Shown here: piece after piece, positions 1 through 14,825 of the stretch | How positions within the stretch are numbered: the stretch's first letter is position 1 | Layout: every line of letters begins with the position of its first letter | Assembly: GCF_044324875.1 (NCBI RefSeq) | Contig: NZ_CP172189.1 | DNA: 14,825 nucleotides | Direction: 5' to 3' (one strand) | Origin: Escherichia coli | Lineage (GTDB): Bacteria > Pseudomonadota > Gammaproteobacteria > Enterobacterales > Enterobacteriaceae | Made by a program: the position numbers and the translations under genes | Notes under the pieces: model-generated | Seen by the model: the letters and a program-made list of their open reading frames with translations, nothing else | Database searches by the model: none | Told to the model about the DNA's origin: nothing

Positions 1-6
1 AGAAGG

Positions 7-114
7 ACAGTATTTGGTATCTGCGCTCTGCTGAAGCCAGTTACCTTCGGAAAAAGAGTTGGTAGCTCTTGATCCGGCAAACAAACCACCGTTGGTAGCG
101 GTGGTTTTTTTGTT
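7..114 (+). ncRNA. RNA I, antisense replication-control RNA of a ColE1/pMB1-type origin (copy A); the origin body lies left of the window
   Basis: Sequence acagtatttggtatctgcgctctgctgaagccagttaccttcgg...ccaccgttggtagcggtggtttttttgttt matches the canonical ~108-nt RNA I almost base for base, with three stem-loops and a terminal T-run. Confidence 0.85.
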
Positions 115-170
115 TGCAAGCAGCAGATTACGCGCAGAAAAAAAGGATCTCAAGAAGATCCTTTAATCTT
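115..170 (-). promoter_or_regulatory. RNA II (primer) promoter of origin copy A
   Basis: On the minus strand: -35 TTGAGA (148-153), 17-bp spacer, -10 TAATCT (125-130), as in the pMB1/ColE1 RNA II promoter. Transcription runs leftward out of the window. Confidence 0.7.
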
Positions 171-172
171 TT

Positions 173-310
173 CTACTGAACCGCGATCCCCGTCAGTTTA
201 GAAGAGGAGGATGGTGCGATGGTCCCTCCCTGAACATCACGTATATAGTTAGCCTGACATCCAACAAGGAGGTTTATCGCGAATATTCCCACAAAAAATC
301 TTTTCCTCAT
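173..310 (-). CDS. kil: Colicin E1 lysis (release) lipoprotein, 45 aa
   Basis: Hand-translated minus-strand [48 protein letters not shown], too short for the ORF track. Lipobox LLVGC, AGGA ribosome-binding site 9 nt upstream, and position downstream of cea/imm next to the origin. Confidence 0.85.
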   Translation of the reverse strand: MRKRFFVGIFAINLLVGCQANYIRDVQGGTIAPSSSSKLTGIAVQ

Positions 311-357
311 AACTCGATCCTTATAAAATGAAAAGAATATATGGCGAGGTTTAATTT

Positions 358-699
358 ATGAGCTTAAGATACTACATAAAAAATATTTTATTTGGCCTGT
401 ACTGCACACTTATATATATATACCTTATAACAAAAAACAGCGAAGGGTATTATTTCCTTGTGTCAGATAAGATGCTATATGCAATAGTGATAAGCACTAT
501 TCTATGTCCATATTCAAAATATGCTATTGAATACATAGCTTTTAACTTCATAAAGAAAGATTTTTTCGAAAGAAGAAAAAACCTAAATAACGCCCCCGTA
601 GCAAAATTAAACCTATTTATGCTATATAATCTACTTTGTTTGGTCCTAGCAATCCCATTTGGATTGCTAGGACTTTTTATATCAATAAAGAATAATTAA
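358..699 (+). CDS. imm: Colicin E1 immunity protein, 113 aa, hydrophobic inner-membrane protein
   Basis: 113-aa hydrophobic ORF convergent with cea, with stop codons overlapping by 4 bp at 696-699. Size and sequence fit the ColE1 Imm; GAGG ribosome-binding site at 346-350. Confidence 0.9.
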
Positions 700-2264
700 A
701 TCCCTAACACCTCATTTATAGTATTAAGTTTATTCTTATCAATATAGGAGCATAGAATTCCTGTAACAATAGCAATACCCCAAATACCTAATGTAGTTCC
801 AGCAAGCAAGCTAAAAAGTAAAGCAACAACATAACTCACCCCTGCATCTGCAGCTTTCTTCTCTAATGTAAGAAATAGTGGCTTCCAGTCACCTGTATCC
901 TTAATTTTTAGGATATCAGATACCACATCATATCCAAAAGAAACATGCCCCGTAATCTTCAAGTACTTGGCAAACTGATCTAAATGTTTAGCCCAGTCAT
1001 CATACTTCACCGATGCCAACGCATTAAAAATAGCATCACGATCGGCTTTGCTGAATTTCTTATTTAAAACATCCTTGTATTTTTCAAAAGCAGCGAGAGC
1101 TTCATTCACATTGCCGATTTTCTTACCTTTAGACTTATCAGCAAGTTCCTGTGCCATTTTCGAATATTTTTCACCATATTTTTCAGTCAGCGTTTGATAA
1201 AAGCTAACTGTTGCATCAACAGCATCCTTAATCTGTGAATTAAGGAGATTATTCTGTGCTTTTTTCAAATTTTCTTCAGCTTCATGAACACGAGCGATAC
1301 CGGCATTACGATTATTACTGACCTGAGAAATAGCCTTCTGGATCTGAGTTATATCAGCATTTATCCGGTTAATACGTGTTTCTGATGCTGTTACCTGTTT
1401 TTGTTTTTCTTCTCTAATCTTACCGGCCCCAACCCGTCGTCTGGTTGCTTCAAAAAAAGGACGGTTCTGAAGCGGATCATTGGCTCTTGGTGATAGTTTT
1501 TTGACCAGCTCATCCAGTTCTTTATATTTAGCGGATGCCTGAGCCAGTTCATTTCGTTTTCCAGCGAGCGTTTTCATTTCTGCATCACGGGCATGGATAC
1601 TGGAGCTTAAACGAGAATTGAGAGTCTTAATCTCTCCATCCATTTTCACCACTTCAGATTGTGCAGCAGAAAGTTTTTTTTGGGCGATCTCAACAGCTTT
1701 AGCTTCTTCACTCAATGCAGCCAGTCGTTTCTCTTCAGCTTCAGCCAGTTTCAACTGGCGTTCTGTTTCAGCCTTCTCCCGTTCAATCTCTTTACGTCGT
1801 TGTTCTGCTTCCTGAAAAGCCTTTTCTGCTGCTTCCGCTTCTTTACGGGCTTTTTCTTCTGCTTTCGCAAGGCGCAAACGCTCTGCTTCCGCCTGCATAG
1901 CTGCATTATTAGCATGAGCAAGCTCTGTTGCTGAAGGCGTACGTGAGGCATTGTGACGAAGAGCCTCATTCACGATATCCTTCAGGCGCTGAGTCAGCGC
2001 ATCCCTGTTTGCCTTTGCTTTCGCCTGTGCTTCCGCTGCAGCTTTTGCCCGGGCAGCCTGCTCTGCCTGTGTTTTCTTTAATTGAGCAGTAGACCATTTA
2101 GCAGTTGCATGAATAGCTGCAGAACTTTCACTTTTACTGCCTCCTTTTCCACCTCCGCCGCCAGAGCCACTCCCGTCAGGAGTACCATTCAAAAGAGTAA
2201 TAATTACCTGTCCCTTATCATCATAAGGAACACCATCTTTATAGTACGCTACCGCGGTTTCCAT
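696..2264 (-). CDS. cea: Colicin E1, 522 aa pore-forming bacteriocin
   Basis: 522-aa ORF starting [42 protein letters not shown] (glycine-rich translocation region), with a long Ala/Glu/Lys coiled-coil and a C-terminal hydrophobic hairpin ([26 protein letters not shown]) typical of the channel domain. Preceded by LexA boxes. Confidence 0.95.
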
Positions 2265-2310
2265 TATAAAATCCTCTTTGACTTTTAAAACAATAAGTTA
2301 AAAATAAATA

Positions 2311-12643: not shown

Positions 12644-12742
12644 AAAGCGGTAGAAAAAGTTAAGTTCCCGGTTGATCGAATGGATGCGAATCGCTGATCG
12701 GACTTCGATGCCAATCCGTGATCGAATAGAGCGGAATACGCA

Positions 12743-13403
12743 TCCCGCCGTTCGGATCTGCAATGCTGATACTGCTTCGCGTCACCCTGACCACTTCCAG
12801 CCCCGCCTCAGTGAGCGCCTGAATCACATCCTGACGGCCTTTTATCTCTCCGGCATGGTAAAGTGCATCTATACCTCGCGTGACGCCCTCAGCAAGCGCC
12901 TGTTTCGTTTCAGGCAGGTTATCAGGGAGTGTCAGCGTCCTGCGGTTCTCCGGGGCGTTCGGGTCATGCAGCCCGTAATGGTGATTTACCAGCGTCTGCC
13001 AGGCATCAATTCTAGGCCTGTCTGCGCGGTCGTAGTACGGCTGGAGGCGTTTTCCGGTCTGTAGCTCCATGTTCGGAATGACAAAATTCAGCTCAAGCCG
13101 TCCCTTGTCCTGGTGCTCCACCCACAGGATGCTGTACTGATTTTTTTCGAGACCGGGCATCAGTACACGCTCAAAGCTCGCCATCACTTTTTCACGTCCT
13201 CCCGGCGGCAGCTCCTTCTCCGCGAACGACAGAACACCGGACGTGTATTTCTTCGCAAATGGCGTGGCATCGATGAGTTCCCGGACTTCTTCCGGATTAC
13301 CCTGAAGCACCGTTGCGCCTTCGCGGTTACGCTCCCTCCCCAGCAGGTAATCAACCGGACCACTGCCACCACCTTTTCCCCTGGCATGAAATTTAACTAT
13401 CAT
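12743..13403 (-). pseudogene. mbeA: Truncated mbeA (N-terminal ~220 codons of the relaxase domain), fused at its 3' end to the IS21-family right terminus
   Basis: Identical or near-identical to MbeA of module B up to ...VTRSSISIADPNGG, then reads into IS sequence (MRIPLYSITDWHRSPISDSHPFDQPGT). DNA similarity to module B stops exactly at the IS terminal CA (12742). Confidence 0.85.
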
Positions 13404-13740
13404 CCCGCGCCCCCTGTTCCCTGACAGCCAGACGCAGCCGGCGCAGCTCATCCCCGATGGCCATCAGTGCGGCCACCACCTGAACCCGGTCACCGGAAGA
13501 CCACTGCCCGCTGTTCACCTTACGGGCTGTCTGATTCAGGTTATTTCCGATGGCGGCCAGCTGACGCAGTAACGGCGGTGCCAGTGTCGGCAGTTTTCCG
13601 GAACGGGCAACCGGCTCCCCCAGGCAGACCCGCCGCATCCATACCGCCAGTTGTTTACCCTCACAGCGTTCAAGTAACCGGGCATGTTCATCATCAGTAA
13701 CCCGTATTGTGAGCATCCTCTCGCGTTTCATCGGTATCAT
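13393..13740 (-). CDS. mbeC: MbeC/MobC-type relaxosome accessory protein, second copy
   Basis: MIPMKRERMLTIRVTDDEHARLLERCEGKQLAVWMRRV..., virtually identical to the copy at 7477-7824. Confidence 0.85.
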   Translation of the reverse strand: MIPMKRERMLTIRVTDDEHARLLERCEGKQLAVWMRRVCLGEPVARSGKLPTLAPPLLRQLAAIGNNLNQTARKVNSGQWSSGDRVQVVAALMAIGDELRRLRLAVREQGARDDS

Positions 13741-13779
13741 TACCCCATGAACAGAAATCCCCCTTACACGGAGGCATCA

Positions 13780-13971
13780 GTGACTAAACAGGAAAAAACC
13801 GCCCTTAACATGGCCCGCTTTATCAGAAGCCAGACATTAACGCTGCTGGAGAAGCTCAACGAACTGGACGCAGATGAACAGGCCGATATTTGTGAATCGC
13901 TTCACGACCACGCCGATGAGCTTTACCGCAGCTGCCTCGCACGTTTCGGGGATGACGGTGAAAACCTCTGA
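13780..13971 (+). CDS. rop: Rop/Rom, second copy; GTG start
   Basis: VTKQEKTALNMARFIRSQTLTLLEKLNELDADEQADICESLHDHADELYRSCLARFGDDGENL (pMB1-type Rop); GGAGG ribosome-binding site at 13770-13774. Confidence 0.9.
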   Translation: MTKQEKTALNMARFIRSQTLTLLEKLNELDADEQADICESLHDHADELYRSCLARFGDDGENL

Positions 13972-14079
13972 CACATGCAGCTCCCGGAGACGGTCACAGC
14001 TTGTCTGTGAGCGGATGCCGGGAGCTGACAAGCCCGTCAGGGCGCGTCAGCAGGTTTTAGCGGGTGTCGGGGCGCAGCC

Positions 14080-14175
14080 CTGACCCAGTCACGTAGCGAT
14101 AGCGGAGTGTATACTGGCTTAACCATGCGGCATCAGTGCGGATTGTATGAAAAGTACGCCATGCCGGGTGTGAAA
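14080..14175. other. oriT/bom region of module C, with canonical ...tatactGgctta... nic motif
   Basis: cagtcacgtagcgatagcggagtgtatactggcttaaccatgcggc. Confidence 0.7.
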
Positions 14176-14179
14176 TGCC

Positions 14180-14825
14180 GCACAGATGCGTAAGGAGAAA
14201 ATGCACGTCCAGGCGCTTTTCCGCTTCCTCGCTCACTGACTCGCTACGCTCGGTCGTTCGACTGCGGCGAGCGGTACTGACTCACACAAAAACGGTAACA
14301 CAGTTATCCACAGAATCAGGGGATAAGGCCGGAAAGAACATGTGAGCAAAAGACCAGGAACAGGAAGAAGGCCACGTAGCAGGCATTTTTCCATAGGCTC
14401 CGCCCCCCTGACGAGCATCACAAAAATAGACGCTCAAGTCAGAGGTGGCGAAACCCGACAGGACTATAAAGATACCAGGCGTTTCCCCCTGGAAGCTCCC
14501 TCGTGCGCTCTCCTGTTCCGACCCTGCCGCTTACCGGATACCTGTCCGCCTTTCTCCCTTCGGGAAGCGTGGCGCTTTCTCATAGCTCACGCTGTTGGTA
14601 TCTCAGTTCGGTGTAGGTCGTTCGCTCCAAGCTGGGCTGTGTGCACGAACCCCCCGTTCAGCCCGACCGCTGCGCCTTATCCGGTAACTATCGTCTTGAG
14701 TCCAACCCGGTAAGGCACGCCTTAACGCCACTGGCAGCAGCCACTGGTAACCGGATTAGCAGAGCGATGATGGCACAAACGGTGCTACAGAGTTCTTGAA
14801 GTAGTGGCCCGACTACGGCTACACT
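14180..14825 (-). other. ColE1-type origin of replication, copy C (partial; the window ends just before its RNA I)
   Basis: Near-identity to the copy B and pMB1 ori body; differs from copy B mainly around 14345-14385. Confidence 0.85.

Follow-up and report, generated by a model that had tools for sequence, protein, structure and literature searches.

A stretch of 14,825 bp of Escherichia coli DNA (NCBI RefSeq assembly GCF_044324875.1, contig NZ_CP172189.1), which was analysed at its full length and is called the window in the following, carries replication, mobilisation and colicin genes of two small plasmids of the ColE1 family together with an intact insertion sequence (IS) of the IS21 family. 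Comparison with database relatives suggests that it probably is a single circle in which a ColE1 plasmid, encoding colicin E1, is fused to a colicin Y plasmid (pColY). Parts that match the one or the other parent are marked E and Y below.

Circularity, origins and parentage

The two ends of the window are neighbours in ColE1. Positions 12743-14825 correspond to bases 2288-4370 of the 6647-bp ColE1 plasmid NZ_CP116092.1 (99.95% identity) and positions 1-2277 to its bases 4371-6647 (100% identity), while 2278-3614 aligns to its bases 1-1337. Since bases 14825 and 1 of the window are thus bases 4370 and 4371 of ColE1, the window is a closed circle of 14,825 bp. A comparison of the window with itself finds direct repeats at 6827-8910 and 12743-14825 (95.5% identity), and the repeat resumes across the window ends (8913-9161 against 3-253).

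RNAI, the antisense regulator modelled by Rfam family RF00106 (gathering score 47), occurs twice, at 9-113 (73.8 bits) and at 8919-9021 (83.4 bits), both times on the + strand. Judged by sequence, the circle carries two ColE1-type origins, not three. The original prediction, which was made from the letters of the window alone, had counted three ColE1-family modules; what it took for the end of one origin and the start of a third is one ColE1 origin that was split by linearisation of the record. Its RNA I near the window start was recovered by Rfam, and its view that the origins share one orientation agrees with the strand of both RNAI genes. Besides an RNAI above the gathering threshold, each replicon has a ColE1-homologous RNAII/origin region and a rop gene downstream, the Rop identities in tblastn being 98% for rop_E and 95% for rop_Y. 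The Y module is 94.7% identical to ColE1 and 99.5% identical to pColY. By tblastn, the only rop genes in the window are 7865-8056 and 13780-13971, and the open reading frames (ORFs) at 3605-3796 and 4371-4562 are not rop. The prediction had also given each replicon its own rop, oriT and mob or colicin module; the two rop genes, the colicin E1 operon and a full mbeA-D set are indeed present, but the second mbeA is truncated. The case is a cautionary one, as a circular record displayed linearly can turn two origins into an apparent three.

With respect to parentage, the segment that runs from 12743 through 14825 and base 1 up to 3498 comes from ColE1, with a single mismatch in the 2083 bp before the window end and none in the 3498 bp after it. 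The segment from 3463 to 10103 comes from a 9.5-kb colicin Y plasmid of the type of pB771_9494 (NZ_CP120560.1), at an identity of about 99.5% (99.54% to pB771_9494 over 4450-10107, and 99.9% over 9030-10107 to pColY records including pB771_9494). Of the 6.6 kb of the ColE1 parent 5.7 kb were kept, and of the 9.5 kb of the pColY parent 6.6 kb. The window thus has the make-up of a heterologous cointegrate: two replicons of different parents, joined at junctions that map to 36 bp and 0 bp, with closure read from the sequence. The features are collected in Table 1; all listed ORFs are open, and the family assignments lie above the NCBIfam cut-offs.

Table 1. Features of the 14,825-bp circle in window coordinates
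Feature	Position	Strand	Support
Distal ColE1 (E) origin: RNAII promoter and 5' region (-), RNAI_E 9-113 (+)	1..114	-	100% ColE1; continues from 14825
Intact colicin E1 operon: kil/lysis 173-310 (-), imm 358-699 (+), cea 696-2264 (-)	173..2264		100% ColE1; names from annotated records
ColE1 entry-exclusion genes exc1 2524-2961, exc2 3042-3461	2524..3461	+	NF033828 Exc2, 176 bits
cer core (XerC site, central region, XerD site), junction 1	3466..3495	-	exact 30/30 match
pColY-type cer accessory arm, with ArgR-box-like TGCATAGGTATGCATA	3496..3614	-	identical to NZ_CP120560.1; 11 mismatches to ColE1
2.3-kb Col-plasmid segment with IS3-family orfA remnant 3987-4165	3615..5930	.	99.8-99.9% in many 8.9-kb plasmids
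Full pColY-type mob set: mbeA 5934-7487, mbeD 6041-6274, mbeB 6281-6799, mbeC 7477-7800	5934..7800	-	NF047848 MbeA, 869.9 bits (cut-off 500); NF033829 MbeD; 99.5% identity to NZ_CP120560.1
pColY (Y) replication module: rop_Y 7865-8056 (+), oriT nic-like 15-mer 8194-8208, origin ~8440-9030, RNAI_Y 8919-9021 (+)	7865..9030		oriT motif with 1 mismatch
Colicin Y operon remains: crl lysis 9081-9221 (-), cui immunity 9341-9865 (+), cya last 70 codons 9893-10103 (-)	9081..10103		
Intact IS21-family element (PGAP: ISSso4-family IstB), junction 2: istA 10336-11871, istB 11888-12643	10104..12742	+	
ColE1 mbeA, N-terminal 220 codons 12743-13403, and intact mbeC_E 13393-13716	12743..13716	-	truncated mbeA_E matches NF047848 model positions 1-225 of 497
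ColE1 (E) replication module: rop_E 13780-13971 (+), oriT nic 15-mer 14109-14123, proximal origin E running into base 1	13780..14825		oriT motif exact

The two junctions

At the first junction, the switch from one parent to the other can be placed to within a few dozen bases. Aligned to pColY, the window has 168 mismatches over 2272-3462, the last of them at 3462 and the next only at 3941; aligned to ColE1, it has no mismatch up to 3498 and 11 differences in 3499-3610. The parental switch therefore lies within 3463-3498. The 30-bp core of the ColE1 cer site, GGTGCGTACAATTAAGGGATTATGGTAAAT, is matched at 30 of 30 positions at 3466-3495 on the - strand; it is the sole copy in the window, where chance would give 0, and it is found in the ColE1 and pColY records as well. 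The core fits the crossover interval to within 3 bp on either side. In a four-way alignment the flank on the XerD side is ColE1-type and the accessory arm on the XerC side is pColY-type. As the only cer core of the circle sits inside the switch interval, its cer site is a hybrid.

A cer-type site was defined by a core of about 30 bp, made up of half-sites for XerC and XerD and a central region of 8 bp, and by some 180 bp of accessory sequence (for ArgR and PepA) on the XerC side. Here the accessory homology to ColE1 extends over about 115 bp, including a motif that presumably is an ArgR box, and beyond it the pColY-type backbone is fully divergent. A scan of the window with the ArgR-box consensus was uninformative, as it gave 11 matches, none of them in cer, where 7.3 were expected. 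Between ColE1 and pColY there are 48 runs of perfect identity with a length of 25 bp or more, which add up to 2939 bp; the longest measure 176-216 bp, and those in the ori region reach 216 bp. Of all these bases the 36-bp run at cer makes up 1.2%, so that an undirected homologous crossover, or a join made by an assembler, would fall there by chance in only about 1-2% of cases. The join of ColE1 exc2, cer and pColY is absent from PLSDB, where the best full-length match reaches 94.5%; for this reason we rejected a pre-existing hybrid parent as the source of the junction.

The original prediction had placed this junction at a remnant of an IS3-family element, which we locate at 3987-4165, but the parents actually meet at the cer core, some 450 bp further upstream. 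The remnant is internal to a segment, 3615-5930, which occurs full-length, contiguous and at 99.8-99.9% identity in ordinary Col plasmids of 8.9-9.5 kb, and an IS3-family transposase pseudogene is annotated in pB771_9494 (NZ_CP120560.1). Because the segment is contiguous in other Col plasmids, the remnant is an old, native feature of the pColY backbone, and we rejected it as a junction. A mobile-element scar that resembles a junction can thus be an old part of a native backbone. ColE1 has 52 bp in place of this 2.3-kb segment, which begins about 115 bp from the cer core, where the distal cer accessory arm would lie. In 3615-5930 the NCBIfam models found no match and a permissive Rfam search nothing above noise; the IS3-family orfA remnant is all that is annotated there.

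The second junction is occupied by the IS21-family element at 10104-12742. Both of its ORFs are intact and are recognised as IstA (NF033546, 284.4 bits, cut-off 160) and IstB (NF038214, 256.6 bits, cut-off 200). The element begins with TGCAAAATGG... on the left and ends with ...GAATACGCA on the right (reverse complement TGCGTATTCC...), and its left end carries reiterated TTTGGCAT...GATC motifs, such that it has terminal inverted repeats and reiterated subterminal repeats. Full-length copies with 100% identity are present in many E. coli genomes. The left flank is pColY cya (...GACCTCC), the right flank ColE1 mbeA (TCCCGCC...), and the flanking hexamers, ACCTCC and TCCCGC, show no target-site duplication. 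Simple insertions of the same element, in contrast, have 6-bp duplications, GCCTGA in plasmid p1054c and CGATTT in a Salmonella plasmid. Since the two flanks differ and stem from different plasmids, this copy marks a rearrangement rather than a simple insertion. The claim that a junction coincides with an IS21-family element at this place was therefore accurate, the intact element lying between a cut cya and a cut ColE1 mbeA.

Neither IS junction had a match in PLSDB or in complete E. coli genomes. Exact-pattern scans likewise came back empty, for the IS-mbeA junction in GTDB genomes and IMG/VR and for the cya-IS junction in JGI metagenomes, and two junction-spanning ORFs, with alternative starts, had no exact-protein record. 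An insertion of an IS21-family element at this site of cya is found in no deposited pColY. Two 12-kb pColY records, H46 and H48, were considered as IS-bearing parents and rejected, as their elements belong to the IS66 family and not to IS21. We also considered microhomology at the IS. The hexamer TCCCGC is present at the pColY site (10098-10103, in the parent sequence) as well as in the ColE1 flank at 12743-12748, and neither of the junctions predicted from it matches the window; its occurrence at both parental sites is probably a coincidence.

In independent records, mbeA genes of Col plasmids are interrupted by the same or a closely related IS21-family element at no fewer than four different sites, namely at 12743 in the window, at 6183 in the p1054c stretch, in a Salmonella plasmid, and at 7509 and 14760 in a 16,543-bp record. 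The p1054c insertion lies only 12 bp from the site in the window. It may be that mbeA is a preferred or a tolerated target of this element.

Proposed routes to the fused circle

We favour, at a probability of about three in four, that the window represents a real molecule, a closed circular heterodimer of 14,825 bp made of two compatible ColE1-family plasmids, which arose by IS-mediated fusion and subsequent XerCD recombination between two cer sites. An IS21-family element residing in pColY cya or in ColE1 mbeA would have fused the two circles, either along the IS-dimer/replicon-fusion route, as is usual for IS21, or through a recombination event that paired two copies of the IS. Whichever plasmid bore the IS first, the product would be a cointegrate of some 21.4 kb in which the IS and the cer site each occur twice, the copies in direct orientation, in the order cya3'-IS-(ColE1 mbeA5' round to mbeA3')-IS-cya5'-exc1Y-exc2Y-cerY-... 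As both backbones run in the same direction, cerE and cerY would be direct repeats in it, and XerCD, by recombining the two, would cut the cointegrate into the observed circle and one of about 6.6 kb. Such a resolution would not restore the parents, as the two backbones were fused at one place and have their cer sites at another. The 6.6-kb circle, being without an origin, would be lost, and with it the 3' end of mbeA_E, mbeB, mbeD, the second IS, the 5' end of cya and pColY exc1 and exc2. The surviving circle would have both origins, one IS without target duplication and one hybrid cer, and since this is its single cer, Xer would no longer be able to separate the fusion. RNAI_E and RNAI_Y have strongly different stem-loops, such that the parents could co-reside and the two origins be under separate controls. 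The enzymes and the order of events in this account are those we infer from the product.

Both engines are documented. IS21-type elements transpose by copy-out-paste-in, and their tandem dimers fuse replicons (Reimmann & Haas 1987, as cited in PMC9333248). Plasmids are kept monomeric by XerCD, which together with accessory proteins recombines sites that are present as direct repeats (abstract of bioRxiv 10.64898/2026.02.23.706985), and recombination at Xer sites and oriT has been proposed to contribute to the evolution of ColE1-like plasmids (PMC8683028 and PMC6764390). An IS-mediated fusion of co-resident Col plasmids, one of two options in the original prediction, thus emerges as the best-supported account, with the corrections that the replicons are two and that one junction is an IS and the other a cer.

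The same final sequence, including the missing target duplication, would result from the reverse order, in which a rare intermolecular XerCD fusion of cerE with cerY came first and an IS21 deletion from an IS in cya to ColE1 mbeA then took out the second cer, so that the fusion became permanent. Altered cer sites can relax the rule of intramolecular recombination, and the pColY-type cer with its divergent distal accessory arm could be such a site. However, Xer at cer-type sites is known to be strongly biased towards the resolution of direct repeats (as also stated in the abstract of bioRxiv 10.64898/2026.02.23.706985), a cer x cer fusion would quickly be resolved again and leave little time for a precise IS-mediated deletion, and IS21-type elements are best known for replicon fusion (PMC9333248); we therefore regard this order, and with it the locking by deletion, as rather unlikely. 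More doubtful still is a genuine cointegrate whose first junction was made by RecA, with homologous recombination hitting the region of the cer core by chance and XerCD playing no part. The crossover interval of 36 bp of perfect identity is about the minimal length for RecA, and the sequence looks the same after either enzyme. Yet the interval is one of 48 candidate runs with 1.2% of the identical bases, it coincides to within 3 bp per side with the Xer core, and the mob-ori block (94.7% identity, with runs of up to 216 bp) would have been a far better RecA substrate than the exc-cer block at 86.8%.

A different kind of doubt concerns the record itself. Two separate circles, pColY::IS21 and ColE1::IS21, could have been merged by an assembler along a false path through the IS and a second shared stretch. 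The IS, a perfect repeat of 2.6 kb, is frequent on E. coli chromosomes and plasmids, ColE1 plasmids with this IS in mbeA exist (p1054c and the 16,543-bp record), public databases hold many doubtful multimeric Col records (13,127 bp, 22,976 bp), and the fused structure was met only once in the collections searched; taken alone, the IS junction is compatible with a chimera. Nevertheless, the chimera would also need a false join within 36 shared bases of a block of about 87% identity, although runs of 176-216 bp were available, and these 36 bases are the cer core, where a crossover is expected from biology and not from an assembler. Moreover, the 95.5% identical repeats show no mixing of alleles. 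In the Y copy, 179 of the diagnostic sites are of the pColY type and 13 of the ColE1 type, and 10 of the 13 fall in 6274-6718 and match another pColY record as natural variants; in the E copy, a single one of 2083 bases departs from ColE1. The original prediction had named mis-assembly across ori, rop, mbeC and mbeA as its other option, but neither junction lies there and each copy keeps the alleles of its parent. The circle also closes with the segments of both parents uninterrupted. A further, weak hint comes from homopolymers that are shorter than in all four related plasmids compared (C7 to C6 at 5205, T8 to T7 at 5544). Such shortenings are typical of long-read consensus errors, or reflect real slippage in non-coding DNA; in the former case long reads, which would span the junctions, would underlie the record. 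Hence a chimera has perhaps the same slim prospects as the RecA route, an artefact being made unlikely rather than impossible, and we infer that the molecule physically exists. A fusion of circles of 8,910 bp and 5,915 bp within the ori repeats was considered as well and set aside as less parsimonious, as both parents would have to be ColE1/pColY hybrids.

Several points weigh against IS fusion followed by Xer resolution. By its sequence, a crossover within 36 identical bases fits RecA as well as XerCD, and the product would look alike whether the IS or Xer acted first. The accessory sequence that the pColY-type cer has in common with the ColE1 cer is limited to about 115 bp, and its competence for accessory-dependent resolution can only be presumed. 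The parents named here are database relatives that presumably stand close to the true co-resident plasmids. Finally, the IS junctions are unmatched in all collections searched, and the structure appears in a single record.

In this context, other records of joined Col plasmids should be mentioned. Several RefSeq plasmids that are labelled complete, of 13,127 bp, 22,976 bp and 16,543 bp, are near-dimers or 2.6-mers of one Col plasmid, with some copies frameshifted; they may be real multimers or artefacts of long-read assembly. In the 197-kb p1054c (NZ_JBUBIS010000004.1, 106672-119064), which comes from a chicken isolate of E. coli, several ColE1-type modules are lined up head to tail, and one of them is a whole ColE1 whose mbeA is interrupted by an IS21-like element; large plasmids thus capture Col modules too.

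Gene stock, relatives and implications

The circle has one complete mob set, two oriTs and both origins. The Y module holds MbeA, MbeB, MbeC, MbeD and an oriT-like 15-mer, as in a MOBP5/HEN (MbeA) system, while the mob content of the E module is limited to MbeA residues 1-220, MbeC and oriT. The nic-region motifs of the two oriTs are 5,915 bp apart as a direct repeat. A relaxase that starts at one oriT and ends at the other could split the molecule during mobilisation into circles of 8,910 bp and 5,915 bp, each with an origin, and the 8,910-bp product would resemble a common natural plasmid type. The two nic 15-mers, at 8194-8208 and 14109-14123, differ by a single base, GTATACTAGCTTAAC against GTATACTGGCTTAAC.

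As regards the colicins, the gene content predicts that colicin E1 production should be intact and colicin Y destroyed, with the colicin Y immunity and lysis genes kept. With cya reduced to its 70 C-terminal codons and cui and crl intact, an immunity-only set stands beside a complete colicin E1 operon.

Compared with ColE1 (NC_001371.1; NZ_CP116092.1), the circle has the same ori, RNAI, rop, oriT, mbeC, kil-imm-cea, exc1, exc2 and XerD side of cer; in contrast, about 950 bp are gone (the 3' 57% of mbeA, mbeB and mbeD), the cer accessory arm is pColY-type and a second replicon is present. To pB771_9494 (NZ_CP120560.1) and to the 8.9-kb Col plasmids it is collinear over 3463-10103, from the cer arm to the 3' end of cya, but it lacks pColY's own exc1 and exc2 and all of cya except the last 70 codons, the gene being cut by the IS21-family element.

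In relation to known processes, PMC8683028 and PMC6764390 (citing Tran et al. 2012 and Zakharova et al. 2002) describe an evolution of ColE1-like plasmids driven by Xer and oriT, with which the circle shares the switch at the XerCD core and two oriTs in direct repeat; here, however, the proposed Xer event goes together with a junction at an IS, and would lock two replicons together instead of swapping a cargo module. As in the replicon fusion by IS21 dimers outlined in PMC9333248, an intact element bridges two replicons as a single copy without target duplication, whereas the textbook product has an IS at both junctions and here the other one is cer. With ColE1 homodimers and their "dimer catastrophe" (Summers & Sherratt; PMC2831885) the circle has in common two directly oriented ColE1-type origins on one molecule, which would fire independently of each other. 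It differs from them in its divergent RNAI, which gives each origin its own copy-number control, and in its single cer, owing to which both Xer and the Rcd checkpoint would treat it as a monomer. Plasmid fusion and reshuffling at Xer and oriT sites, as well as IS cointegrates, are established ideas (PMC8683028, PMC6764390 and PMC9333248), and public databases already hold multi-module Col records, which are mostly homo-multimers; the present heterodimer and its two junctions were not found in the collections searched.

The circle is thus a tidy but ordinary case of known plasmid recombination and does not overturn current understanding. It is a clean natural example in which IS replicon fusion and Xer recombination, two main engines in the remodelling of small plasmids, are probably combined. 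It is tempting to generalise, if tentatively, and we would sooner doubt than assert it, that Xer mis-resolution acts as a ratchet: an IS fuses compatible ColE1-family plasmids, offset cer sites discard a circle without origin, and a stable, selected plasmid with a single cer and two origins remains. If this were true, the product would be stable and selected rather than transient, and here it would pair colicin E1 production with colicin Y immunity. The circle could serve as a test case for two differently regulated ColE1-type origins on one molecule, for oriT x oriT splitting during mobilisation and for the selection of colicin Y immunity without the toxin.

A last observation concerns annotation. 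A 52-codon ORF in the RNAII/ori region (8726-8884 and 14641-14799) is called a replication initiation protein by PGAP in relatives (WP_071531517.1), a label that is probably spurious, because ColE1-type replication needs no plasmid initiator.

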